In this document: positions 43,068 to 62,631 of the stretch, piece by piece
How positions within the stretch are numbered: position 1 is the first letter of the stretch
Layout of the letters: every line of letters starts with the position of its first letter
Assembly (NCBI GenBank): GCA_035293765.1
Contig: DATGMF010000079.1
Location: 1-64,000 of the forward strand
Direction: 5' to 3'
Source: Ktedonosporobacter sp.
GTDB lineage: Bacteria; Chloroflexota; Ktedonobacteria; Ktedonobacterales; Ktedonobacteraceae
DNA length: 64,000 nucleotides
The notes under the pieces: generated by a model
Told to the model about the DNA's origin: nothing
The model's database searches: none
What the model saw: only the letters and a program-made list of their open reading frames with translations
Made by a program: the position numbers and the translations under genes

Positions 43068-48265
<5,198 letters not shown>

Positions 48266-48266
<1 letters not shown>

Positions 48267-51235
48267 TGAATTTTACTGTTGGCTCGCTGGTCAAAGCACG
48301 CGGACGCGAGTGGGTCGTCCTGCCGGAATCCGATGATCAGGTGTTGGTCCTGCGCCCGCTGGGAGGGAGCGAGCAGGAAGTGACCGGCATTTATCGCGGC
48401 CTGGAGGAGGTGGAGGCGGCTTCGTTTGCCCTGCCCGATCCGCAGGCGCTGGGCGATTATCGTTCGTGTCGCCTGTTGCGAGACGCGGTCCGCCTGGGCT
48501 TTCGGACCAGCGCCGGTCCTTTCCGCTCGTTCTCCCATATCGGGGTAGAGCCGCGCCCCTACCAGTTTGTGCCGCTGCTGCTGGCCCTCAAGCTCGATCC
48601 GGTGCGCCTGTTGATCGCCGATGACGTGGGCATTGGCAAAACCGTCGAAGCCTGCCTGATTGGTCGCGAACTGCTGGATCGCGGCGAGATCGAGCGCATG
48701 GCAGTGCTCTGTCCGCCGCACCTGGCCGAACAGTGGCAGGTGGAACTGCGCGAGAAATTTCATATCGAGGCGGTGCTGGTGCTGGCGAGTACGGCGACAC
48801 AGCTTCAACGGACCTGCCGCTTTGACGAGTCGATTTTCGAGCGCTATCCCTTTGTGATCGTCTCAACCGATTTCATCAAAGCCGACCGCAGGCGCGACGA
48901 ATTCCTGCGCACCTGCCCCGAATTCGTGATCGTGGACGAGGCGCATACCTGCACGGATGCCGGCGCTGGACGCGGACGCCAGCAGCGCTACGATCTGGTG
49001 GCAAGTCTGGCTGCTCATGCTGAACGGCATCTGGTGCTGGTCACGGCCACGCCCCATAGCGGCAACGAAGCGGCCTTCCGCTCGCTACTCAGCCTGCTCA
49101 AGCCAGAGTTCGCGGCCCTGCCCGAAGATTTGACCGGCCAGCAGCATGAACGCGAGCGGCGCACGCTGGCGGCCCATTTTGTGCAGCGGCGACGCGCTGA
49201 TATCACCGCCTATCTTCACACCAATACTCCCTTCCCTGACCGCAAGGAGAGCGAGCAGCACTACACGCTCACCCCCGCGTACCGGCGGCTCTTTGAGCGC
49301 GTGTTGCACTACGCCCGCGAGACGATTAGCGATCCGGCGGATGGCAACAGGCATCGCCAGCGGGTGCGCTGGTGGTCGGCCCTGGCCTTGCTCCGCTCCC
49401 TGGCCTCCAGTCCGGCGGCGGCGGCTGCCACCCTGCGCAATCGCGCCAGCACGGCTGATACTTCCGACGAAGCTGAGGCCGACCGGATCGGACGCCATAC
49501 GGTGATGGATCTGCTGGACAACGAGTCGAGCGAAGGGGTCGATATTGTGCCGGGCAGCGATTACGAGGAGCAGCAGGCGGGCGAGTCAAGTTTGCGCAAG
49601 CGTTTGCAGGCGATGGCTCGTGAGGCCGAGGCGCTCAAAGGCGCGCAGGATGCCAAACTGTTGCAGGCGGTGAAGATCGTCAACGACCTGCTCAAAGATG
49701 GCTTTCAGCCGATCCTCTTCTGCCGCTTTATTCCCACGGCTGAATATGTGGCGCAGGAGCTGAGTACGCGCCTGCCAAAAGATATCCAGGTCGAGGCGGT
49801 GACGGGCCTGCTGCCGCCGGTGGAGCGCGAAAACCGCATCCTGCAACTGGCGGAGCAGCCCAGGCGCGTGCTTGTTTGCACCGATTGCTTGAGCGAGGGC
49901 ATCAACCTGCAAGAGCATTTTAACGCGGTCATCCACTACGATCTTTCATGGAACCCCACGCGCCATGAACAGCGCGAAGGGCGGGTGGACCGCTATGGTC
50001 AGGCCAGCCCCCAGGTGCGCGTGGTGACGTACTACGGCCACGATAATCCAGTTGATGGCATTGTGCTGGAAGTCCTGATCAAAAAGCATCATACCATTCG
50101 CACCTCGCTGGGTATCTCGGTGCCGGTACCGGTCAATAGCGAGCAGGTGCTGGAAGCGATCTTGGAGGGCGCATTGCTGCGCGGCCATAGTAGCTCGCCT
50201 TCCAGCCTGCAAATGACCCTGCCGGGCCTGGAAGACCCGCGCGAGGAGCAGTTCTGGTTGCAATGGGAGGCCAACGCGGCCCGCGAGAAGCGTTCGCGTA
50301 CCATGTTCGCCCAGGAGAGCATTAAGCCCGACGAGGTTGCGGCGGAACTGGCGGCCATGCGCTCGGCGATGGGGTCCGCTATCGACGTCGAGCACTTTAT
50401 CCGCGATGCGTTGAGCGAATACGGTGCTGCCGTCTCGCCGCTCAACAATGGTGCGCTCCAGGTGGATTACAGCACCATGCGGGGTCCGCAACCAGCACAG
50501 AGCGTACACGAGGCTCGCGGCTTGAAAGAGACCCTTCAGGCGGTACTGCGCCACGATCAGAAGGACAGGCGTTTCAGGGCGCGCTTCGAACTGCCTGTTC
50601 GTGAGGGAGAATTGTATTTGAGCCGCACGCACCCGCTGGTCGAGAGCGTGGCGGCGTACGTGATGGATGCCGCGCTCGATTCGACGACTGGCAGCGAGAG
50701 CATCGCCAAACGCTGCGGTGTGATGCGCACCAGCCAGGTTGAGCGGCGCACCACTCTGCTGCTGCTCCGCCTGCGCTACCATATCGTGACCACGCAGCGC
50801 GGACAGGCTGAACGGACGCTGCTGGCCGAGGATTGCCAGGTGCTGGCCTTCCAGGGTTCACCCATGAGTGCCCGCTGGCTTGACGATAAAACCCTGGTCG
50901 AACGCCTGCTTGAGGCGCGGCCCGATGGCAATATCTATGAAGATCAGGCGCGGCAATTTCTGTGCCAGTTGCTTGCAGAGATCGAGCATGTGCAGCCATA
51001 TCTGACCGAGATAGCCGAGCAGCGAGCGCAGGAACTCGCGACCGCGCATCGCCGTGTGCGCCAGGCCGCCCAGGCGCGCGGCCTGCAATACCGCGTCGAG
51101 CCGCAAATGCCGGTTGACATCCTGGGCATCTATCTCTATTTGCCCAAGATCGCGTCAACCCCACAAGGCAAGAGCGAAGCACCGTCGTATCGACCTGATT
51201 ATGAGCATGAACGACCAAGATCGGCAAGGTCGTAG
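48266..51235 (+). CDS. SNF2-family helicase/ATPase (DrmD-like), translationally coupled to upstream gene (TGATG overlap)
   Basis: SNF2_N: RPYQFVPLLLALKLDPVRLLIADDVGIGKTVEA; DEAH box FVIVDEAHTC. Helicase_C: VLVCTDCLSEGINLQEHFNAVIHYDLSWNPTRHEQREGRVDRYGQ. Confidence 0.85.
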
Positions 51236-51469: not shown

Positions 51470-54400
51470 ATGGTAGCATACCAGAAGCGACAGCAAACCA
51501 TCTTCTCGACCATCCATAGCGAGGGGGCGATCCTGCCGATGGACCTGCTGCAACGCATCAGCGACCCGCAGAACGCCCAGCTTGAGGGTCTGACCCCCGA
51601 CGCCTATCACCTCGAAACGATCAAGCTGAACGAGGCGATTAACCGCGCGTGGACCAGCCTGCTGGGCGTCTGGCAGCGGTTCCGGCATGAACAGAAGCGG
51701 TTGACGGAGCACGAGAGTGGGACGACGCTGACACGCGAACGCTGGCTGCTGCCATTATTTCAAGAACTGGGCTATGGTCGCCTGCAAACGAAATCCCCCC
51801 TGGTGGTGAGCGAGCGCAGCTACGCGATCTCGCACGGCTGGGAAGGCACGCCGATTCACCTCGTGAGCTACAAGGTGGCGCTGGACCATAGCGTACACTT
51901 TGAGAGTGGCGCGCGGCGTAGCAGCCCTCACAGCCTGCTACAAGAACTACTCAACCGTTCAAAAGAGCATCTGTGGGGCATCGTCTCCAACGGGCTGCGC
52001 TTGCGTCTGCTGCGCAATAATGTGAGCCTGACGCGCCAGGCGTATGTCGAGTTTGATCTGGAGGCGATGTTCAACAACGAGGTCTATGCCGATTTTGTGC
52101 TGCTCTGGCTGCTGTGCCATCAATCGCGGATGGAGGGGGAGCGCCCGGCGGATTGCTGGCTGGAGAAGTGGTCGCAGGAGGCTCATACGACCGGGACGCG
52201 CGTGCTCGAAGATCTGCGCGAGAACGTCGAACACGCCATCAAGGAACTGGGCAGCGGCTTTCTGACCCACCCGGCCAACGGCCAGTTGCGCGAGCAACTG
52301 AGTACGGGGACGCTGAGCGCGATGGATTACTACAAGCAGCTCCTGCGTATCGTGTACCGCCTGCTGGTGCTCTTCGTGGCCGAGGATCGCGGCATCCTCT
52401 TCGACCCAGCCGCGCCCCAGTCCGCCCGCGAGCTGTACACCCGCTATTACTCGACGATGAAGTTGCGCTTCCAGGCTGACCGGCAACTGGGGACGCGCCA
52501 CAGCGACCTGTACTATGGCCTCAAGCTGGTGATGGAGAAGCTGGGCCAGGAGCGCGGCTGCCCGGAGCTGGGTCTGCCCGCGCTCAACGGCTTTCTCTTC
52601 TCGCCCAGAGCGGTCAGCGATCTTCAGGAGTGCCAGCTCGCCAACTATGCCCTGCTGGCGGCGGTGCGTCACCTGGCCTATACCGAACGCGGGCGCACAC
52701 GGCGCATCATCGATTACAAAAACCTGGGCTCCGAAGAACTGGGCAGCGTCTACGAATCGCTGCTGGAGCTGCACCCGGTCTTCCATCTCGATACCGGTAC
52801 ATTCGAGCTTGCCAGCGCCAGCGGCAACGAGCGCAAGACCAGCGGCAGCTACTACACTCCCACCAGCCTGATCACCTGCCTGCTCGACTCGGCCCTCGAT
52901 CCCGTGCTGGACGAAGCGGCGAACAAGCCCAATGCCGAAGCTGCCATTCTCAGCCTCAAAGTCTGCGATCCCGCCTGTGGCAGCGGTCACTTCCTGGTTG
53001 CCGCCGCGCATCGCATCGCCAAACGGCTGGCCGCCGTGCGCACCGGAGACGAGGAGCCAGCGCCGGAAGCGCGCCGCCACGCCCTGCGCGATGTCGTCGG
53101 ACGCTGTATCTACGGCGTGGACATGAACCCGATGGCGGTGGAACTGTGCAAGGTCAGCCTGTGGATGGAGGCTATCGAGCCAGGCAAGCCGTTCTCCTTC
53201 CTCGATGCCCACATCCAATGCGGCAATAGCCTGCTGGGCGCGACTCCGGCCCTGCTCAAAGCGGGCATCCCTGACGCGGCCTTTGAGCCGATAGAGGGCG
53301 ATGATAAGAAGGTCTGTGGGGAATTTAAGAAGCTGAACAGACAGCAGCGCGAGGGCAACGTCAGCCTCTTCCGCGAGGACCGCGGCGAGCCGATCTGGGA
53401 GCAGCAAGGGACGCTGCTGCATTCGATGCTGGAAGTTGAAGCGATGCCCGACGACAACTTCGCGCACATTCACCGCAAAGATGCCTCCTTTGACAAACTG
53501 CGCAAGTCGGAAATCTACCAGAACGCCCTGCTGTGGGCCAACGCCTGGTGCGCCGCCTTCGTCTGGAAGAAGACCGCCGAGATGCGCCCGCCGATCACCG
53601 ACGAAGAGTTCCGCGACATCGGCAAAAATCCCTTCACGCTCCCGGGCTGGCGCAAAGCCGAAATCAAGCGGCTGGCCGCGCAATACCAGTTCTTCCACTG
53701 GCACCTCGCCTTCCCCGACGTCTTCCGCGTCCCTCCCCGAGGTAAGCCGCCCGAGAGCGAGCAGGCAGACTGGTCCGGCGGCTTCGATGTGGTGCTGGGG
53801 AATCCGCCGTGGGAACGCATCAAACTTCAAGAGAAAGAGTGGTTTGCCAGTCGCCAACCGGAGATCGCCAATGCCGCCAACGCCGCCCTGCGCCGCAAAA
53901 AGATCGCGGCCCTGAAGGACGAAAATCCCGCGCTGTTCCAGGCATTTATGGACGACCAGCGCAAAGCCACCGGCGAAAGCCATATCGTGCGCGATAGTGG
54001 CCGCTACCCCCTCTGTGGTCGCGGCGATGTCAATACCTACTCGATTTTCGCTGAGAACATGCGAACAATCATCTCTTCTCAAGGGCGCGTGGGATGTATT
54101 GTGCCTTCAGGAGTGGCAACGGATGATACAACAAAGGTTTTCTTTCAAGATTTGATGCAATCCAGGTCTTTGCTTTCACTATATGATTTTGAGAATCGAG
54201 ATGCTATCTTTTCTGGAGTTCATCGAAGCTATAAATTTTGCCTGTTAACCTTAACTGGTTCGGCTCGCCCTGCCTCTCGTGGAGCAGAATTCTTCTTCTT
54301 CGCTCATGATACTGCCGATTTGCAAGAGAAAGAGCGGCGTTTTGTTCTCTCGGCCCGCGATATTGAGTTGCTGAACCCGAACACGCGCACTTGCCCGATC

Positions 54401-55468
54401 TTCCGTACAAAGAGAGATATGACAATCACAAAATCTGTCTATTCTCGTGTACCAGTGCTGATTAAGGAAGGCTCAACAGGGTATAACGTGTGGAACGTTT
54501 CCTTTGCCTCAATGTTTCATATGACAAATGACTCCCACCTTTTCCAGATGCGTGAGCAGCTAGAGAACGAGGGCTGGAGGCTGGTTGGCAATGCTTTCCA
54601 GAAGGATGGGGAAGTGTGCCTGCCTTTATACGAGGGCAAGATGATTTCACATTTTGACCATCGCTTTGCCGCTTATGGTGAGGAACAGGGAGACCATGAA
54701 AGTATAGCGGGTGCCGCGCAAAATGCTGACCCTCACAAGCTCAATCTGCCGCGCTACTGGGTGCATGCATCCCACATGCCGACTCTAACACAGCGCAGAA
54801 AGGTATTGCTGGCTTTTCGGAGCATTGCTCGCTCTACAGATATACGCACAATCATATCTAGTATTGTCCCCAATACTCCTTGTGGCAATAGCTTAATCGT
54901 CGCTTTAATTAATGAGCACAGCTCAAAACTGCTGTTTCTGCCTGTTTCTATCTCATCATTTGTGTTTGATTATATTGCGAGACAAAAGACTGGCGGAGCC
55001 AATTTAAACTTTTTCATCCTCAAGCAACTCCCCGTTCCTCCACCCGATACCTACAAAGCCGCGTGTGGGTGGGATCACCAACATACTATCGGCGAATGGA
55101 TAGTGCCGCGAGCGATGGAACTCACGTACACCGCCTGGGACCTCGCGGCGTTCGCCAGAGATTGCGGCTATGATGGGCCGCCTTTCAGGTGGGATGAGGC
55201 GCGGCGCTTCCTGCTGCGCTGCGAGCTGGACGCGGCGTACTTTCACCTGTATGGGATTGAGCGGGAGGATGTGGACTATATTATGGACACGTTCCCCATT
55301 GTCAAGCGCGGGGATGAGAAGCAACACGGGGAGTATCGCACGAAGCGGGTGATTCTGGAGATGTATGATGAGATGCGGCGGGCGATGGAGACGGGGGAGG
55401 CGTATCGGACGCGGCTGGTGCCAGAACCGGCAGGTGCGGGGGTGCGGCATGAGGGGAAGAACGAGTAG
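51470..55468 (+). CDS. large gamma-class N6-adenine DNA methyltransferase (DrmMI / PglX / type IIG-IIL family) with N-terminal unassigned domain and C-terminal TRD
   Basis: Motif I VCDPACGSGHFLVAAAHRI (~52966). Motif IV VVLGNPPWERIK (~53800). Motif order I then IV means gamma class; 1332 aa. The ~54080-55010 portion is markedly AT-richer than the rest of the gene. Confidence 0.85.
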   Translation: MVAYQKRQQTIFSTIHSEGAILPMDLLQRISDPQNAQLEGLTPDAYHLETIKLNEAINRAWTSLLGVWQRFRHEQKRLTEHESGTTLTRERWLLPLFQELGYGRLQTKSPLVVSERSYAISHGWEGTPIHLVSYKVALDHSVHFESGARRSSPHSLLQELLNRSKEHLWGIVSNGLRLRLLRNNVSLTRQAYVEFDLEAMFNNEVYADFVLLWLLCHQSRMEGERPADCWLEKWSQEAHTTGTRVLEDLRENVEHAIKELGSGFLTHPANGQLREQLSTGTLSAMDYYKQLLRIVYRLLVLFVAEDRGILFDPAAPQSARELYTRYYSTMKLRFQADRQLGTRHSDLYYGLKLVMEKLGQERGCPELGLPALNGFLFSPRAVSDLQECQLANYALLAAVRHLAYTERGRTRRIIDYKNLGSEELGSVYESLLELHPVFHLDTGTFELASASGNERKTSGSYYTPTSLITCLLDSALDPVLDEAANKPNAEAAILSLKVCDPACGSGHFLVAAAHRIAKRLAAVRTGDEEPAPEARRHALRDVVGRCIYGVDMNPMAVELCKVSLWMEAIEPGKPFSFLDAHIQCGNSLLGATPALLKAGIPDAAFEPIEGDDKKVCGEFKKLNRQQREGNVSLFREDRGEPIWEQQGTLLHSMLEVEAMPDDNFAHIHRKDASFDKLRKSEIYQNALLWANAWCAAFVWKKTAEMRPPITDEEFRDIGKNPFTLPGWRKAEIKRLAAQYQFFHWHLAFPDVFRVPPRGKPPESEQADWSGGFDVVLGNPPWERIKLQEKEWFASRQPEIANAANAALRRKKIAALKDENPALFQAFMDDQRKATGESHIVRDSGRYPLCGRGDVNTYSIFAENMRTIISSQGRVGCIVPSGVATDDTTKVFFQDLMQSRSLLSLYDFENRDAIFSGVHRSYKFCLLTLTGSARPASRGAEFFFFAHDTADLQEKERRFVLSARDIELLNPNTRTCPIFRTKRDMTITKSVYSRVPVLIKEGSTGYNVWNVSFASMFHMTNDSHLFQMREQLENEGWRLVGNAFQKDGEVCLPLYEGKMISHFDHRFAAYGEEQGDHESIAGAAQNADPHKLNLPRYWVHASHMPTLTQRRKVLLAFRSIARSTDIRTIISSIVPNTPCGNSLIVALINEHSSKLLFLPVSISSFVFDYIARQKTGGANLNFFILKQLPVPPPDTYKAACGWDHQHTIGEWIVPRAMELTYTAWDLAAFARDCGYDGPPFRWDEARRFLLRCELDAAYFHLYGIEREDVDYIMDTFPIVKRGDEKQHGEYRTKRVILEMYDEMRRAMETGEAYRTRLVPEPAGAGVRHEGKNE

Positions 55469-55564
55469 CAGTCTTTTTAGAAGGCGATGATGTGGGCATT
55501 CCCTCTGTGGCTGCTGTGATAGTCAGAGTATAATAGATGTGTCTATGGTAGAAAGGGATTGTGT

Positions 55565-58198
55565 ATGGCAACTCAGGGATCGCTAACCCGCGAAGGGATG
55601 CTTGCGGGAATGCAGCAGGCTCTTGATGAAGAGATCGCAGAAAAGATCGCCAGACCGAATATTAAGCATAGTGCCGTGGACGGCAAACTCGTTTCTGTAG
55701 GCAACGGCCAGTATATTTACCAGTTTACTTTGCTCGAACCCTGGACGCCCGACGATGATACGTCGCTCTCCATTGTGAACGCAGAAGCAAAAAGTATCAA
55801 GTGTAGCGTCGTTACCTCGACCGGCACCTTGCTGACCATCGCTTCAGATCAAGCATTGCCTCCAGCTCAGCTGAGCCAGATCAATCTGAGCGACGACTCG
55901 ACTGAACTCCTCAAGCGCCAGAAGGAAGCTTTGAAACATGTCGAGGAAGGGAAAAATCAGCTTGCCTCGAAATGCTTTGGCCTGATCGCGTATCGGTATA
56001 TAACCGCTGCGAGCGACAAACGCTTTGGAAAGTGGAAGCTGCGTAACAACCAATATATGGCGGCACAGAGGACCCTGGGCGGTGAGATCGCTTTTATTGT
56101 CGGCCCTCCTGGCACTGGCAAGACCCTGACGCTGGCCGCTATCGCCGCGCATAACAATATCGCCATCGATAATGCGATCATGAAGCCCTGTGAGTTGTGC
56201 AAAAGCGCGGGCAGGCCGGATCTGCTCAGAGATGGGCAGGTTGTGCGCTTTGGTGCAGTGCAAAAAGCCGAACTCAAAGATAATGCCGAGTACGCGGAAG
56301 TCTATCTGCCCAAAATCGCTCACTCCCTGGGCGTTGCGACCCAGGAGCGCCAGAAGGCCGTTAAAGCTGAATTGGATCAGATCACGCAAAAGCTGACAAG
56401 CATACTGCAACAGCGGCGAGGGAGCAGCGGACCATTAGAGCAGCAATTGAGCGAAATAACTGCTCAAATCGCGCGCTGGAATCAGGAACTGGCTCCCCTG
56501 GAGCAGGAAGGGCAGCGCCATATTGCCTCCCTGCAAGCTCAGCAGAAGCAATATACAGCAAACCACGGCCGCCTGCAACGGGAGGCTACTCAAGCCGGAC
56601 AGCAGCTTGCCAGGGCGAAAGCGCAAGAGGAGGAGCGGAAACGCGAACTTGAGCACTGGAAGCAACAGAAGCAGCAGACAGTGACACGGCTGGTTGAAGC
56701 GCGAGCGATGAGCGGTATCAAGCGTCTCTTCAAAGGTCCCAGCCTGAAGGCGCTGGAAGACCAGGTCGCGCAATGCAGCCATAAAGTCTATGTAACCCGG
56801 CAAGCACTGGATGCCCTTCAACCAGAAGTGAAGCGCGTGCAAAAGGCGTTTTCCCAGCACACGCAAGAGTTGGAGATGAGCGAGCAACAGTTAAAGGCCA
56901 TCCTGGAACAGTTACATACACCCACCGAACGAGCGCAACGAATAGCAGAGCTGAGGGAGCAGAAAGCTTATGCAGGGCAGCGAACCACCAGCATCCAGGC
57001 AACATTGAAGCAAAAGAAAGCAGGCGCTGCTGCGGAGACGCAAGCTTTGCAGGCTCAAAAGAACCGCCTGGAGACAGCGTTGGCGGAGCTGGATCAGCAA
57101 TTGCGAGACATCGAGAAGAGCATCGTCGAGAAGGCCCTGGTTGTTGGCACAACGCTCACCAAAACCTACATGAATCAAGCCGTTGCGAGCAGGCGTTTTG
57201 ATGCCGTCATTCTCGATGAGGTCTCGATGGCACCTATGCCGCTTGTCTATCTGGCAGCTACTCACGCCGAACGCTCCGTAACCCTCATTGGCGATCCACG
57301 GCAGCTCGCACCAACAGTCTCATCTGACAAGCCAGCGGCTCGGCAGTGGTTGGGCAAAGATATTTTCGATCTCAGAGGAATTTCTTTAGAAGCTGCCGAT
57401 CAACTTTTCCAGCATAGCATCTTGCTGAATGTGCAATCACGTATGCACCCTGACATTTCGCGTATAGCGAGGGAACTGATCTACGACGATAAATTGCATG
57501 ACGATCCAACATTGCCAAAAGAGGCGCAACCGCTGTTCCCACTGCCCACATCCCCGCTGGTGCTCTGTGATACGCAAGACGCTTCCCCGCTTGCAACACG
57601 ACCCTCTCGTGGGCGATCATGGAAAAATTACTATCATGCGCTCTGCTGCATCACTCTGGCGCGTAAGATGCTAGAGGAGCACTCCGATCTCAAGAAAAAA
57701 AGAAACGAACCGGCTATCGGCATTGTCACGCCTTATCGTGCGCAGGCGCAACTATTACAAAGCCTCTTGAAGGATGCTGGATTGCAAACCCATGTACAGG
57801 CGGGGACGATACACCGTTTCCAGGGCCTGGAATTTGAGATCATCCTATTTGATACGGTTGCCTCTACTGGCTCCCATGCGAGCGAGTTTATTGCTGGCGG
57901 CCATGGCTCAAATTCGATGCGCCTCTTGAATGTCGCGGTCACGCGTGCGAAACAAAAACTCGTCATCGTTGCTAATCCAGGCTTTATCCAGGAACAGTTC
58001 CAGGAGAGTCCCATCATGCACCAGGTTGTACTGATGGCTGCAGGAACTGCTACTATTCCCTCGCTCAATGTGGCGGGCACGTCATTCTCCTCTCTTGTCG
58101 CGAAAGCACGTCGTGCGCATCCAGAAGTCACTGCTCCAGAGGTGATCCTGGCTCTACTCGATATGAAATTTACGGCGCGTAAAGCGAGACCCATATAG
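55565..58198 (+). CDS. Upf1/DNA2-like SF1B helicase (AAA_11/AAA_12) with ~290-aa coiled-coil insertion between Walker A and Walker B
   Basis: Walker A FIVGPPGTGKTLT. Long Q/E/K/R/A-rich heptad region (~aa 230-520). Walker B VILDEVSMAP, III LIGDPRQLAPTV, IV VQSRMHPDISR, V IGIVTPYRAQAQ, VI LNVAVTRAKQKLVIV. ATG at 55565 with RBS gaaaggga; the track used an upstream TTG. Confidence 0.8.
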   Translation: MATQGSLTREGMLAGMQQALDEEIAEKIARPNIKHSAVDGKLVSVGNGQYIYQFTLLEPWTPDDDTSLSIVNAEAKSIKCSVVTSTGTLLTIASDQALPPAQLSQINLSDDSTELLKRQKEALKHVEEGKNQLASKCFGLIAYRYITAASDKRFGKWKLRNNQYMAAQRTLGGEIAFIVGPPGTGKTLTLAAIAAHNNIAIDNAIMKPCELCKSAGRPDLLRDGQVVRFGAVQKAELKDNAEYAEVYLPKIAHSLGVATQERQKAVKAELDQITQKLTSILQQRRGSSGPLEQQLSEITAQIARWNQELAPLEQEGQRHIASLQAQQKQYTANHGRLQREATQAGQQLARAKAQEEERKRELEHWKQQKQQTVTRLVEARAMSGIKRLFKGPSLKALEDQVAQCSHKVYVTRQALDALQPEVKRVQKAFSQHTQELEMSEQQLKAILEQLHTPTERAQRIAELREQKAYAGQRTTSIQATLKQKKAGAAAETQALQAQKNRLETALAELDQQLRDIEKSIVEKALVVGTTLTKTYMNQAVASRRFDAVILDEVSMAPMPLVYLAATHAERSVTLIGDPRQLAPTVSSDKPAARQWLGKDIFDLRGISLEAADQLFQHSILLNVQSRMHPDISRIARELIYDDKLHDDPTLPKEAQPLFPLPTSPLVLCDTQDASPLATRPSRGRSWKNYYHALCCITLARKMLEEHSDLKKKRNEPAIGIVTPYRAQAQLLQSLLKDAGLQTHVQAGTIHRFQGLEFEIILFDTVASTGSHASEFIAGGHGSNSMRLLNVAVTRAKQKLVIVANPGFIQEQFQESPIMHQVVLMAAGTATIPSLNVAGTSFSSLVAKARRAHPEVTAPEVILALLDMKFTARKARPI

Positions 58199-58672
58199 AT
58201 ACCGGTTCAGCTTGTCTGTTCTGTCAATAATAATCTGTCGACTGATAGATATCATGCCTTGCAAACAGCAAAGATGCCTCTGGCACCCTGTAATTGCGCA
58301 CCTATGTGTGATGAGCAGGGGATGTACGACCTGGCGATGGAAGCGGCTTTTCAGGAGAGAGATGCAAGTAATATATATTGAAGTGCATAAAAGTTCTATT
58401 TTGACCTGTTTTCCTCAGGGTTTCTCAAAAGTCCCACGAGTAGCGCAACGAGGAGGTAGCAGAGTTTGTGCAGGCTGATGAGAGGTGACAAGTGGCCTAA
58501 GGAGAATGTTGCACTCCTGAGAGGTGGAGCAGCAGCGCAAGAGCAACCGAAATGAGCATCAGATGAACGAAAAAGCGGAGAAGCTAGGGAAAGAAGCCAT
58601 GAGGGGCCACTCGGCACAGAAGGCTGAGCCGAGGAAGGGAACCCGCAAGGCCCTGGAAGGCTGGTTAGTGGG

Positions 58673-59745
58673 CTATGAGTCCCAGAAAGGCTGCGCACTG
58701 AGCTCTCCATCAGGGGGCAGATGCAGCCGAGCCTGGACGAGGGGGTGATCGAGCACGGTGTAGTCCTTGCCCCGTGTCACAAACCCGTAGCCTGCCAGAT
58801 CCGAGAGGACGGCTCCCGTGCCATACGCTCCATCCAGGCGCAGGAGGGCCTGCCCTCCTGGGAAGCGGTGCGCAGCAAGATAGGCGCTGATGGCCTCGAC
58901 CGCACGACGCACTTCCTCGCGATACCGCCCGTTCCCACGGTTGCCGAAACTGCCGAGCCACTGATGGCTGTGGGCCTGCAAGACAGTCGTGCGGGTACGC
59001 ACCACCTCACCCCGTTTGCGTCCGGTGTAGCCAGGGGCACACACCTCAGTCAGGCGACGCTGCGGCTCTGGAAGATGATCTCCACCGGGCAAGGCGCGTT
59101 GGCGGGCCGCCTCACGGGTCCCGTCGATGTCGAAGACCCTCCATTGCTGCCCCTGCCGATCCCAGAGTCCGGCGACCTCGGCGTCTGCACCCAGAGATCG
59201 GACCAACAGATCGGCCAGAAACAGGGTACGCAAGGTTTCGATCACTGGCGCTGTCAGAGCCGCCAACGCCCGCGAGAGAGCCGAACGAGAGGGCAGCTGC
59301 TCCCGTCCAAAGAGCGCCATAAAGGGCTGTCCCCAGGGCCGCAGAACCTCGTAGAATCTCTCTAGGGTAGGCTCGGCACTGACAGCGTAGCCAAAGAGCA
59401 CGACGAGAAAGTCGATCAGCTCATCGTGTCCACAGCGTCGTCGCTCAAAGCGCATGCTTTCGGCGCTGGGTCAGGATGCCCTGCTGCCGAAGATGCTGCG
59501 ACAGAAGTACGAGTTCGCCCCACCAGGGCGGCGGACAGGGCAGAGCGTCGGCAGACGTTTGGATCATCACCGATCCGTCGGCGATACTATTCATATGCTC
59601 CTCCTTGATGGGAAAACATTGATTCTTCTCCATCAGGGAGGCATATTCTTTGGCTGGCTGGCTAGCTGTCAGCTCGTTGCGCTACTCGTGGGAAAGGGGA
59701 TGCTCTGGTGTGGTACGCTTTTTCTTAGGTACAGACATAGTTCCC
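58673..59745 (-). mobile_element. degraded IS element: DDE transposase (IS4/IS701-like) split over >=3 frames and C-terminally truncated
   Basis: ORF 58673-59455 (260 aa; ...WRVFDIDGTREAARQRALPGG...). Upstream N-terminal piece 59445-59633 in another frame. 18-codon stub MSVPKKKRTTPEHPLSHE with RBS aaggaggg at ~59744. A full IS4-type transposase would be >400 aa. Confidence 0.55.
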
Positions 59746-60247: not shown

Positions 60248-60469
60248 ATGTCTTGGAAAATTATCAACCGCATTCTCGGTCTGGCAACTATCGATCAAGA
60301 TTTTGCTCAAAAACTGTTAACCGATCCATTACCCGCAATTCAGGACAAAGGTTTTCAACTTACGAATAGGGAACGAGAGGTTTTCAGTGAAATCTCTGCA
60401 AGTACGCTCAATGAACTCAGCCAACAGCTCATGCAAAAGCTGAGTCATGACGATGTTGATCGGAGTTGA
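60248..60469 (+). CDS. small soluble protein (73 aa) with NHLP/Nif11-leader-like N-terminus; function unknown
   Basis: RBS gggaggaaag. ...IDQDFAQKLLTDPLPAIQDKGFQLTNREREVF... resembles the W.D..F...LL.DP..A....G..L leader pattern. It lacks a GG site or a Cys-rich core. Confidence 0.35.
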   Translation: MSWKIINRILGLATIDQDFAQKLLTDPLPAIQDKGFQLTNREREVFSEISASTLNELSQQLMQKLSHDDVDRS

Positions 60470-60497
60470 AATATAGGTGTGATTATAAGGAGGTAAG

Positions 60498-61481
60498 ATG
60501 AAGCAATCTCTCGCTCCGCTACGGGTGTACCTGTTCGGCCACTTCTCTGCCGAACGTGGTGGGCATGTCATCGCGGGCTTGGAGCCACGACGCCTGCAAG
60601 AGCTCTTTAGCTATCTCCTCCTCAACCGTCATCGCCGCTGTTCTCGTGAACTACTGGCAAGCCTTTTCTGGGGAGAGAGTTCTACAGAGCAAGCAAAGAG
60701 AAATTTGCGCCAGGTGCTATGGCAACTGCAGACAGCGCTAGAGGCAGAAATATCCACAGATACAGCATCTATTCTTACTATTACCGCCGACTGGTTACAG
60801 GTCAATCCGAACGCTGAGCTCTGGCTGGATGTAGATTGCTTTGAACAAGCCTGGAATAAAACCAGATATATCTCTGGAAAAGATTTAGATGCTTCGCAGG
60901 CACAATTGCTACGGAACGCTATCGGGCTGCATCAGGAGGTATTATTACTCGGCAATTACGAGAATTGGTGTCTCCGCGAGCGTGAACGGCTACGCGAGTG
61001 CTCTGTAGAGATGCTAGACAAATTGATGGAGTATAGTGAGTTCCACCATGATTACGAGGCCGCTCTAAGCGCCGGTTCTCGCATTCTGGACTACGACCGT
61101 GCCCACGAGGCTACTTATCAACACATTATGCGTCTCTACTACTTTTTAGGTCAAAGGGTGGAGGCACTCAAGCAGTATCAGCGCTGTAAAGCCGCTCTTC
61201 TGGAAGAATTGGGAGCCTTGCCCAGTAGAAGCACCCGTACTCTCTATCAGCACATCTTTCTGGAGCAAATGGAGGTCGAGACGGATGGGAAGGGGATGAC
61301 CGAGTATGTACAGCAGGAAACACCTCTGCTTGCACATATCTTGCATGAATTGCAACAAGTTCAAGCCATTCAAGCCAATGCGCAACGACAGGTGGACTTT
61401 CATATTCGCAAAATCGAGCAGGCTCTCCAGACATTTGTGGGAGCCTCAAAAGAGCCGATAACCAGTAAGCTCACTTTGTAA
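60498..61481 (+). CDS. SARP-family transcriptional activator (OmpR-type winged helix + BTAD)
   Basis: LRVYLFGHFSAERGGHVIAGLEPRRLQELFSYLLLNRHRRCSRELLASLFWGESSTEQAKRNLRQVLWQLQ is the SARP DNA-binding domain. BTAD: ...ATYQHIMRLYYFLGQRVEALKQYQRCKAALLEELGALPS. RBS aaggaggt. Confidence 0.8.
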   Translation: MKQSLAPLRVYLFGHFSAERGGHVIAGLEPRRLQELFSYLLLNRHRRCSRELLASLFWGESSTEQAKRNLRQVLWQLQTALEAEISTDTASILTITADWLQVNPNAELWLDVDCFEQAWNKTRYISGKDLDASQAQLLRNAIGLHQEVLLLGNYENWCLRERERLRECSVEMLDKLMEYSEFHHDYEAALSAGSRILDYDRAHEATYQHIMRLYYFLGQRVEALKQYQRCKAALLEELGALPSRSTRTLYQHIFLEQMEVETDGKGMTEYVQQETPLLAHILHELQQVQAIQANAQRQVDFHIRKIEQALQTFVGASKEPITSKLTL

Positions 61482-61674
61482 AAGTTGGAGTTTAGAGTGG
61501 GTCGTATCGTTACCCTTTTTCCGACCCGCTCTAAACTCCAATAAAAGAAAAAGTGTAGGACGAGAAATTGGCTGTAAAAAGACGCCGTCAAAGATAGTTA
61601 GTTAACGCCCTGGCAGACAGCCCTGCGCTATCATCATAGTAACACCGTGTGCCGATATATAAGGAGTTGATAGC

Positions 61675-62631
61675 GTGTCCTTCTTTTCAGTTCAACTGAG
61701 GCAGTTGCGTAAATCACTCTTTGGAATCGCGTTGGAAGAGACAACATTTGCCAAGCGAGGATTTTACAGAGGGGATTCAGATGCGCAATACAGGTTGGAG
61801 CAGATCGGGGCAACCTTCGTCCAGGGATATCATGCAGCGCTCGAAGATGATTGCTTTGAAGTCCTGGTACCTTCCCTTCAAAACCTTGAAGCCGAGTTAC
61901 AGGGTTTCGCTTTTGAAGGAGCTGCGATGGGACTCGCTCTGCTCGACTACTTTCTGCCTCCAAAACAACGCCTGATCTCTTTTATGCAAGGACCAGGGAA
62001 AAACCACATTTACATGTTGCATGTCGGAGCTGGCTGGACGCTTGGAAGGCTTCCCAGGAGCGCCCGCAGGCTGATGCGACAGTTCGATCCACTGCTGTGC
62101 TGGTTAGTTCTGGACGGTTACGGGTTCCATCAAGGCTTTTTCTCCTGGCGTCACTTTATCGATAACCAGGCTCTTCCAGCGCGTCTTTCTGGCGATGCTC
62201 TCCATGTTTTTGATCAGGGACTGGGCCGAAGCCTCTGGTTTGTGAGAGGGGCCGATGTTGCTCAAGTTAGCTCCACCATTGATGCGTTTCCTGCAGAACG
62301 TAGGGGCGATCTCTGGAGCGGAATCGGACTGGCTTGTGCATATGCAGGCGGAACTGAACGGGGTGCGATAGAGGCGCTCTGTAACGCGGCAGGAAAAGAT
62401 CGATGGCACCTTGCGCAAGGGGCAGCCTTCGCGGCGAAAGCCCGGCAAAGAGCAGGGAATCCAGCGCCGCATACTGATCTTGCCTGCAAGGTTTTCAGCG
62501 GTCGCTCAAGTGACGAGGCGACAAGACTGACAGATGAATGCTTGAACGATTTACCCCCGGGTGAGCAGGCTTACGCGCTCTGGCGTCTACGATTGCGAAC
62601 GCAACTGGCCCAGCAGGATGAACGCGTTTAG
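61675..62631 (+). CDS. conserved hypothetical protein immediately upstream of the PKS (possibly enediyne-cassette UnbL/DUF1702-like; unverified)
   Basis: 318-aa soluble protein. The UnbL/DUF1702 assignment rests on genomic context only; I could not match a motif from memory. Confidence 0.4.
   Translation: MSFFSVQLRQLRKSLFGIALEETTFAKRGFYRGDSDAQYRLEQIGATFVQGYHAALEDDCFEVLVPSLQNLEAELQGFAFEGAAMGLALLDYFLPPKQRLISFMQGPGKNHIYMLHVGAGWTLGRLPRSARRLMRQFDPLLCWLVLDGYGFHQGFFSWRHFIDNQALPARLSGDALHVFDQGLGRSLWFVRGADVAQVSSTIDAFPAERRGDLWSGIGLACAYAGGTERGAIEALCNAAGKDRWHLAQGAAFAAKARQRAGNPAPHTDLACKVFSGRSSDEATRLTDECLNDLPPGEQAYALWRLRLRTQLAQQDERV

Follow-up and report, generated by a model that had tools for sequence, protein, structure and literature searches.

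The 64,000-nucleotide stretch of Ktedonosporobacter sp. DNA analysed here (the window; positions 1 to 64,000 of contig DATGMF010000079.1, assembly GCA_035293765.1) carries, as the last gene of a defence operon, an open reading frame (ORF; 55565..58198, + strand, with an alternative TTG start possible two codons upstream) for an 877-amino acid (aa) helicase. Judged from its sequence and those of its relatives, this allele has lost both its 3' end and part of the motor core, and it derives from a Mokosh-like protein in which a helicase is joined to a phospholipase D (PLD) nuclease. The explanation that best accounts for the evidence, and that we consider probable, is that it represents the decayed copy of a ~1150-aa, five-part defence helicase-nuclease equipped with a docking or dimerisation arm and encoded last behind modules containing a YprA-type helicase. 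An earlier interpretation made from the letters of the window (the sequence-only reading) described a Upf1-like helicase with a coiled coil inside its first RecA domain (RecA1) but missed both the truncation, in which the PLD and two zinc ribbons were lost, and a 39-bp deletion in RecA1.

By its domains, motifs and modelled fold the 877-aa protein is a Upf1-like (Dna2/Nam7) helicase of superfamily 1B (SF1B), an assignment already made in the sequence-only reading and borne out by Pfam, by phmmer against the PDB and by Foldseek. Pfam matched AAA_11 to aa 160-587 (E = 2.2e-19, 70.7 bits), with a long unaligned stretch inside, and AAA_12 to aa 616-804 (E = 2.6e-35, 122.2 bits), in both cases against a cut-off of 27 bits; the two domains together are the signature pair of Upf1/Dna2/Nam7-type SF1B helicases. 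The phmmer search with the helicase as query returned SETX, Upf1, Sen1, Dna2, IGHMBP2 and ZNFX1. An AlphaFold2 model built from a 64-sequence family alignment had a mean predicted local distance difference test score (pLDDT) of 89.4 and a predicted template modelling score of 0.77, and its Foldseek matches were headed by SETX (1e-25), followed by Upf1, IGHMBP2, Sen1 and Dna2 (E-values of 1e-25 to 1e-18 overall; for Upf1, Sen1/SETX and IGHMBP2, 1e-25 to 1e-20 with template modelling scores of 0.5-0.7, normalised to the target). The N-terminal domain was modelled as a helix (aa 9-29), six strands within aa 34-110 and a second helix (aa 114-124).

Walker A and Walker B are separated by 371 aa, in agreement with the gap of ~370 residues rich in Q, E, R, K, A and L noticed before, and the insert lying between them consists to 65% of these six residues, against 44% in the remaining protein. 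Its length is ~267 aa rather than the ~290 aa first proposed, and its coiled-coil nature held up. AlphaFold2 resolved the insert into helices at aa 257-381, 384-390, 394-451 and 455-523, that is, ~125 residues leading outward (257-381) and ~127 leading back (394-451 plus 455-523), with the second return helix running directly into the β-strand ahead of Walker B; pLDDT ranged from 74 to 94 along the arms and from 58 to 68 at the apex. The insert, compared across 45 relatives of 27% identity or more, displays conserved hydrophobic positions at 3/4/7 spacing and a nearly constant length (mode 267 aa, mostly 260-275, full range 236-289), with a conservation per column of 1.4-1.5 bits in the arms and 1.92 in the apex, against 2.6-2.9 in the RecA core. 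A home-made heptad score computed for the single helicase sequence was moderately above that of shuffled sequences, and the case for a coiled coil is carried by the family-level heptad pattern and the model rather than by this score. Because the predicted helices, the family heptad spacing and the constant length coincide, the insert is taken as an ordered coiled coil and not as low-complexity disorder, the alternative against which the sequence-only reading had set its proposal and which the model and the family heptads exclude. The outward and return lengths are equal and the insert should therefore form an antiparallel two-helix hairpin of ~18 nm; that one helix packs against the other is inferred from the agreement in arm length, the heptads and the confidence of the model.

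In the phmmer alignments the C-terminal return helix coincides with the Upf1 and SETX helices that directly precede an 'ADVICCTC'-type strand, a region that we take to be subdomain 1C, the 'prong', of Upf1 and Sen1. There 1C is helical but short, with a few tens of residues, and the insert, judged from these alignments, is best described as an extreme lengthening of 1C rather than as a foreign stalk. The window protein thus resembles Upf1, Sen1/SETX and IGHMBP2 in its 1B barrel with stalk, both RecA domains, all motifs and an insert at the 1C site, and differs from them in the size of that insert (a ~267-aa, 18-nm hairpin), in the absence of CH and other regulatory domains and in its prokaryotic defence context. 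The resemblance to Smc and Rad50 raised in the sequence-only reading proved compositional. Hidden Markov models of SMC, JetC and LmuB, and an archaeal SMC-related protein, matched weakly (E-values of 1e-3 to 1e-5), far under their curated cut-offs and exclusively within aa 257-533, and no CxxC hook is found at the arm apex in the translated sequence; with a motor of RecA-type SF1 architecture, kinship with SMC, Rad50 or MukB was rejected.

The position of the arm is also what lends weight to the main mechanistic rival of a docking arm, namely that the hairpin handles nucleic acid as an extended prong, a long pin, wedge or clamp by which the strand in front of a 5'→3' motor would be guided or measured. 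In Upf1 and Sen1, subdomain 1C lines the channel for nucleic acid, and Sen1 requires its prong in order to function; the return helix of the arm aligns at this very position, arm length is strongly conserved, and the arm is retained in solitary and PLD-less members of the family (see below). Against it, a two-helix coil of ~18 nm far exceeds the length needed to touch a bound strand, the arm sequence is weakly conserved save for its hydrophobic core and apex, a pattern typical of spacers whose function lies in the tip, and no nucleic-acid-binding motif was found in the arm. We consider this role unlikely and favour docking or dimerisation through the apex.

The insert had been called unusual, a view that a comparison across the wider helicase clade did not sustain. 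For the 221 nearest proteins (P0001-P0221) collected in two database searches, we measured how far motif III lies from Walker A. This distance amounted to 133-187 aa in canonical Upf1, IGHMBP2 and Dna2-type matches and to ~200 aa in a few of the 221, whereas the great majority had distances of ~325-335, 402-417, 452-459 or 550-566 aa, the family of the window helicase belonging to the 402-417-aa (~408) class. The lengths thus fall into discrete classes (~200, 330, 408, 455 and 560 aa) and not into a continuum, a pattern suggesting that coiled-coil segments were added whole and step by step, to both strands of the hairpin. Most long-insert proteins among the 221 also bear an HxK(x4)D (HKD) PLD motif near the C-terminus, with one HKD motif per chain in the helicase-PLD proteins, and PLD-less chains of 850-900 aa in which the arm is retained were also found (P0097, P0100, P0108-P0126). 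Almost all of the nearest helicases therefore have long inserts, and there is a precedent in CnuH of the CoCoNuT systems, a Upf1-like helicase with a helical/coiled-coil insertion (Bell et al. 2024, eLife, PMC11090510); the long coiled-coil insert is a family trait and not an oddity. A literature text search for Mokosh together with coiled coil returned nothing relevant, and the trait looks under-described for Mokosh-like proteins, yet it is not new in kind.

Comparison with the closest homologues revealed that the window ORF lacks the C-terminal part of the protein. These homologues (1078-1182 aa; P0002 with 81% identity, P0003-P0013 with 49-61%) all run on into a PLDc_2 domain, exemplified by the motif MHEKMVIID of P0002, and, except for the shorter P0006, into two CxxC-type zinc ribbons after it. 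In the AlphaFold2 model of intact P0002 (pLDDT 89.1) the PLD occupies aa 890-1022 and the zinc ribbons aa 1044-1145. A blastn comparison of the window with the contig encoding P0002 (L003) gave one collinear high-scoring segment pair spanning 51667-58168 at 84% identity and none beyond it, so that the 3' end of the window ORF, its last nine codons, is unrelated to the full-length relatives. No HxK(x4)D motif is present in the 877-aa ORF, and the PLD and zinc-ribbon part of P0002 found no match by tblastn anywhere in the 64-kb window. An insertion sequence (IS)-like element with perfect terminal inverted repeats, the sole copy in the window, begins 264 nucleotides (nt) downstream of the breakpoint and holds a transposase-like ORF (58673-59455, − strand, 260 aa) with a weak match to IS1380 (E = 1.6e-4). 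Plain insertion of this element was rejected as the cause of the truncation, the element lying past the breakpoint and nothing downstream matching L003; the gap and the missing downstream match therefore point to a deletion or replacement event.

A second lesion lies in the motor itself. The later motifs listed in the sequence-only reading (GDPRQLAP, SRMHP, TPYRAQ and TRAKQ) are all present and intact, as stated there. A 39-bp in-frame deletion, however, removed 13 aa just after Walker A; the helix that follows the P-loop has lost its end and RecA1 its next β-strand, so that the RecA1 core between motifs I and Ia is incomplete. In intact P0002 the corresponding segment was modelled as a helix (aa 184-197) and a strand (aa 202-206) with pLDDT of ~96, and in the window protein the confidence at the deletion block was 72. 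The 13-aa gap is unique to the window among the 64 aligned sequences, the segment being present in the other 63, and the only departures of the window protein from positions conserved in at least 90% of them are three, all within aa 192-208: the deletion itself, T197N in motif Ia and L208P. The allele is not an assembly artefact, since at least 24 contigs of independent samples encode an identical 877-aa protein (P0001) and show the same neighbouring genes.

From these lesions it is probable that the window allele has lost its function as a helicase-nuclease, and we hold this likelier than a residual role. Some findings nevertheless weigh against complete loss. The pairwise ratio of nonsynonymous to synonymous substitutions (dN/dS) between window and L003 was 0.20 for the helicase, whose coiled coil alone gave 0.28, and 0.10 for the methyltransferase next to it, the first value indicating that most of the history of the window copy passed under purifying selection; no residue conserved in at least 90% of the sequences was lost outside aa 192-208; and the allele may thus be recently damaged or keep some role. 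For the same reasons, broad pseudogene-like decay was rejected. A further reading goes beyond a residual role and sees in the allele a functional, PLD-less helicase or scaffold subunit of the upstream defence module (assigned below to ARMADA), with the truncation as adaptive remodelling. It can draw on the PLD-less members of similar length, on an ORF that stays open for 877 codons and is identical on all those contigs, on the dN/dS of the helicase and on motifs that are all intact from motif II onward. It is hard to reconcile with DNA collinearity that stops inside the ORF and gives way to nine unrelated codons with an IS-like element nearby, with the loss of a strand kept in all 63 other sequences in addition to T197N and L208P, and with the low model confidence at the deletion block; the nonsynonymous branch, from the dN/dS distances, is also ~1.6-fold longer on the window lineage than on that of L003, which is weak evidence. 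We regard such remodelling as improbable and loss of function as the better account of the allele.

Among known systems, the intact relatives (P0002-P0013, P0077-P0092) most resemble Mokosh type II, with its MkoC protein, in having an N-terminal Upf1-like helicase and a C-terminal PLD with the HxK(x4)D motif. Mokosh type II consists of one gene whose ATPase site and PLD site are both essential (Millman et al. 2022, 10.1101/2022.05.11.491447), and its product purifies as a monomer (10.1101/2025.07.10.664194). The relatives matched the PADLOC MkoC model over RecA2 and PLD (1e-46 to 1e-49, 150-166 bits), as well as MkoA helicase models; however, they cover positions ~770-1120 of the 1136 of MkoC and leave its N-terminal two thirds unmatched, and the window protein matched positions 823-955 only (1.4e-27). 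These partial matches place the intact relatives in a clade separate from MkoC, which differs from Mokosh type II also in its two extra C-terminal zinc ribbons and in being partly linked in operons to YprA systems. The window copy, being without PLD, does not combine helicase and nuclease in one chain as type II does, and it differs from Mokosh type I (MkoA + MkoB) in that its helicase has no kinase domain and the window no PLD gene.

Two observations on Mokosh-like genes were made in passing. P0014 (L092 182-4522; 45% identity) has a Ser/Thr protein kinase N-terminal to the same coiled-coil helicase and its PLD (PLDc_2) in a separate downstream gene, a Mokosh type I layout within the same clade. 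In every E. coli genome inspected (L088 7016-8032, L089-L091), the Mokosh type II-like helicase-PLD gene yjhR either lacks its N-terminal part or is broken up by elements of the IS3 and IS66 families, and the matches listed in a database search with the YjhR fragment were all partial proteins of at most 723 aa; yjhR is a parallel case of decay of this gene type.

The helicase gene is co-oriented with, and directly downstream of, three large genes (Table 1), and the claim that it is appended to a defence operon was supported, the arrangement recurring in relatives. The operon itself fits ARMADA Type I better than the DISARM- or Druantia-like locus envisaged before. As described in the main text of the ARMADA preprint (10.1101/2025.09.15.676423), Type I comprises a YprA with a C-terminal Vsr nuclease, followed by a BrxHII-like helicase and a PglX-like methyltransferase, and the three upstream genes of the window match this type in domain content and order, to judge from their sequences, by which they also look intact. 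In the YprA-like helicase of the window the DUF559 domain was assigned to aa 1669-1713 (22.7 bits against a Pfam cut-off of 20.6), and the best PADLOC matches of this protein were DruE models (DruE3, 3.5e-98), consistent with the placement of ARMADA YprA closest to Druantia in the same preprint text. According to that text, ARMADA YprA helicases carry a finger-like coiled-coil extension after RecA2. A charged, Q/E/K/R/A/L-rich and P/G-poor stretch follows RecA2 in the window YprA as well (aa ~1112-1225; 46401-46742) and is, by its composition, a candidate for this extension. The first 100 nt of the SNF2 ORF as listed (48167-48266) also belong to the 3' end of the YprA gene, and the true SNF2 start probably lies downstream, because the orthologue in L002 is 61 aa shorter.

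The spacer between methyltransferase and helicase genes was previously proposed to hold a promoter of its own, and the TATAAT hexamer on which this proposal rested is present; a consensus scan called no sigma-70-like promoter on the + strand of 55469..55564, a result that is weak either way, the scan being centred on sigma-70 and the host a member of the Chloroflexota.

Table 1 Features of the helicase and of the surrounding window.
Feature	Residues (aa)	Window position	Strand	Basis or content
N-terminal domain, Upf1-like 1B barrel and stalk	1-160	55565..56044	+	AlphaFold2 β-barrel between helices
Walker A / motif I, GPPGTGKT	180-187	56102..56125	+	G, P, G, G and K invariant (64 sequences)
Junction of 39-bp in-frame deletion		56139..56140	+	ATCGCC microhomology flanks; DNA alignment to L003 and L002
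Coiled-coil insert	257-523	56333..57133	+	AlphaFold2, heptad spacing, conserved length, composition
Arm apex	374-394	56684..56746	+	LVEARAMSGIKRLFKGPSLKA; family motif L-x2-A-x2-M-x4-R-x3-G; helix broken at 381-394
Walker B / motif II, DEVS	551-554	57215..57226	+	D551 and E552 invariant in the 64-sequence alignment
Motif III, GDPRQLAP	576-583	57290..57313	+	G576, D577, Q580 and P583 invariant (64 sequences)
RecA2 domain	~601-810	57365..57994	+	SRMHP, TPYRAQ, HRFQG segment, TRAKQ; Pfam AAA_12 and AlphaFold2
Truncation breakpoint		58168..58169	+	end of homology to full-length relatives; last 9 codons, FTARKARPI and stop, unrelated
YprA/DruE-like SF2 helicase, 1732 aa		43068..48266	+	DEAD, Helicase_C, MZB/DUF1998, C-terminal DUF559 (Vsr-like nuclease)
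SNF2 helicase, BrxHII/DrmD/DpdE type		48167..51235	+	Pfam SNF2-rel_dom, Helicase_C; PADLOC DpdE 1.8e-267, DrmD 3.7e-83
N6-adenine DNA methyltransferase, PglX/DrmMI type, 1332 aa		51470..55468	+	Pfam Eco57I, N6_Mtase; PADLOC DrmMI 7.8e-65
Methyltransferase-helicase spacer, 96 nt		55469..55564	+	TATAAT at 55529-55534
IS-like element, 1262 bp		58432..59693	.	perfect 21-nt terminal inverted repeats TCCCACGAGTAGCGCAACGAG

Among relatives of at least 49% identity, and counting the window, the helicase-PLD gene stands last, on the same strand and directly behind a YprA-type system in 7 of the 8 informative loci, with upstream spacers of 36-153 nt at the individual loci. The contig L002 (P0012) contains the same four-gene operon as the window in intact form; in L003 (P0002), L007 (P0009) and L093 (P0010) the methyltransferase gene immediately precedes the helicase-PLD gene; and in L004/L005 (P0004) and L006 (P0013) the upstream genes are those of a YprA (seen in L004 only), an AAA_5 (McrB-type) protein and a ~770-aa protein without Pfam match. 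The remaining informative locus, L001 (P0003, 60% identity), has a solitary helicase-PLD gene surrounded by housekeeping genes, and L092 (P0014), in which the contig ends, was uninformative. Relatives of at most 42% identity are solitary genes, the copy in L094 adjoining a HEPN gene, and tblastn found no recognisable YprA, SNF2 or methyltransferase neighbours among the matches listed for the distant loci L008-L014 and L020. The underlying scan of genome contigs used the pattern GPPGTGKTx[TV] only and is a sample, not a census; the relatives that it yielded were all distant. Attachment to a defence operon is thus supported for a Ktedonobacteria-centred subclade.

This distribution leaves some room for the view that the helicase-PLD gene is an autonomous, Mokosh type II-like system that merely sits beside ARMADA in a defence island, its coil serving a mechanism of its own such as autoinhibition or substrate sensing. 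Solitary copies exist (L001 and L094), the distant loci just named have no such neighbours, Mokosh type II acts as one gene, the upstream spacers could hold a promoter, and the gene follows two different upstream modules and is also adjoined by a GmrSD gene. Set against these points are the loci of the closer relatives, in which the gene comes directly behind a YprA-type module, on the same strand and always last, as well as the existence in ARMADA Type II of an analogous, essential fourth gene. That gene, armD, encodes a UvrD helicase, similar to GajB, in fusion with a RelE-like domain, as stated in the preprint's main text (10.1101/2025.09.15.676423), and it resembles the helicase-PLD gene in that an SF1 helicase fused to a nuclease-type domain forms the 3' end of the operon. 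The two differ in the helicase itself, which in the window is of SF1B Upf1-type and matches GajB over 70 residues only (1.9e-5), and in the N-terminus, a barrel with stalk that is not RelE-like. Autonomy appears possible, though doubtful, and a link with the YprA modules remains the preferred explanation for the closer relatives.

Several peculiarities were noted at the loci of these relatives. In L003 (2-3812) a frameshift or an assembly error divides the methyltransferase orthologue into one ORF of 841 aa and another of 440 aa, so that this locus has a damaged methyltransferase and the window locus a damaged helicase. The module in L004 (1-9891) consists of a YprA-like helicase (YjiV_N), a 922-aa DUF8426/AAA_5 (McrB-type) protein and a 788-aa protein without Pfam match, and that in L006 (4737-9940) shows the AAA_5-type and no-Pfam proteins with 976 and 758 aa; this upstream module is possibly a relative of CoCoNuT or Druantia II that has yet to be characterised. 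A GmrSD-type (DUF262/DUF1524) Type IV restriction gene adjoins the helicase-PLD gene, in either orientation, in L002 (13623-16016), L004 (13541-15949) and L005 (5281-7689).

CoCoNuT and DISARM are the other systems with which parts of the locus can be compared. The large helical/coiled-coil insertion of CnuH after Walker A has its counterpart in the window helicase, the likeness resting on the published description and on the shared Upf1-like family; AlphaFold2-multimer models suggest that this insertion of CnuH docks the nuclease effector CnuE, which Type III-B systems carry as a fusion with the helicase and which in Type III-C is a PLD (PMC11090510). The window differs from CoCoNuT in that no AAA_5 or McrBC-type match, as expected of CnuB/CnuC partners, occurs among the ORFs scanned between 38.7 and 62.6 kb, in that SmpB-like, RelE-like and winged helix-turn-helix effector modules are absent from it, and in that the nuclease of its relatives is a directly fused single PLD. 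A partial likeness is seen in L004 and L006, where an AAA_5 (McrB-type) gene lies upstream and the next protein has no Pfam match. With class 1 DISARM (DrmA, DrmB, DrmC, DrmD and DrmMI) the window has in common an SNF2 helicase, an N6-methyltransferase and a DEAD/DUF1998 helicase, and the PLD as last component of the intact relatives is functionally reminiscent of DrmC. In the window, however, helicase and DUF1998 are fused with a Vsr-like nuclease, an ARMADA/Druantia-like arrangement, and the PLD of the relatives matched MkoB/MkoC models but no DrmC model at E ≤ 1e-5 and is fused to an SF1B helicase; DrmC, in addition, has a four-helix bundle.

In the explanation that we favour, the intact protein would combine the 1B barrel, a Upf1-like SF1B motor, the arm of fixed length, a single-HKD PLD nuclease and two zinc ribbons, with the antiparallel ~267-aa arm standing where Upf1 and Sen1 have their short 1C 'prong'. 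The motor would translocate 5'→3', as is a property of the Upf1 family, presumably on single-stranded nucleic acid exposed during infection, and would thereby deliver the PLD nuclease. The arm would project from the leading face of RecA1 and serve, by way of its conserved apex, as a lever for docking or dimerisation, aligning either a second protomer or the coiled coil of a putative partner so that two half-site PLD domains could form one nuclease. PLD nucleases such as Nuc and Zucchini need two HKD motifs for one active site; with one HKD motif per chain, and Mokosh type II purifying as a monomer, activation plausibly requires conditional pairing. Two considerations speak against this scheme. 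The arm is kept in solitary genes (L001, L094, L008-L014) and in the naturally PLD-less relatives of 850-900 aa, and it is therefore not dedicated solely to YprA docking or to a PLD in cis. Adjacency to YprA modules, finally, could reflect clustering in defence islands and not a functional link.

A more specific proposal, which we put forward as rather speculative, is that in Ktedonobacteria-type Chloroflexota the helicase-PLD protein is the dedicated fourth subunit of an undescribed variant of ARMADA Type I, as well as of the module of YprA, McrB-like AAA_5 and unknown protein, with the 18-nm arm docking tip-first on the coiled-coil 'finger' of YprA. If so, docking would couple a 5'→3' SF1B motor and a PLD nuclease to the YprA, SNF2 and methyltransferase machinery, and the protein would be the SF1B counterpart both of ArmD in Type II and of the CnuH-CnuE coupling through coiled coils. 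The words Mokosh, Upf1 and SF1 are absent from the main text of the ARMADA preprint (10.1101/2025.09.15.676423), which describes no such Type I gene; the neighbourhoods suggest a link of Mokosh-like genes to ARMADA/YprA systems that this main text does not contain.

The insert shifts from an oddity in an ATPase core to a trait of the family: Upf1-type prokaryotic defence helicases routinely extend the 1C prong into a coiled-coil arm whose length takes one of several discrete, conserved values, and a PLD nuclease usually accompanies it. Arm length, apex motif and dimerisation of the single-HKD PLD offer handles on how Mokosh-like helicase-nucleases are switched on. The novelty is modest and comprises the discrete conserved arm lengths, the zinc-ribbon clade and an attachment to YprA systems that is apparently unreported, as far as the main text of the ARMADA preprint goes. 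Being truncated and core-deleted, the window copy would be a poor representative for cloning, for which an intact orthologue such as P0012 in L002 is to be preferred.

Past the defence locus, the region 60248-62631 of the window contains a small ORF that has a PF14407 (Frankia_peptide) match in the identical contig L095, together with genes for a regulator with a BTAD domain (60498-61481) and for a DUF1702 protein (61675-62631), and may be a small cluster for a peptide or a product resembling ribosomally synthesised and post-translationally modified peptides.

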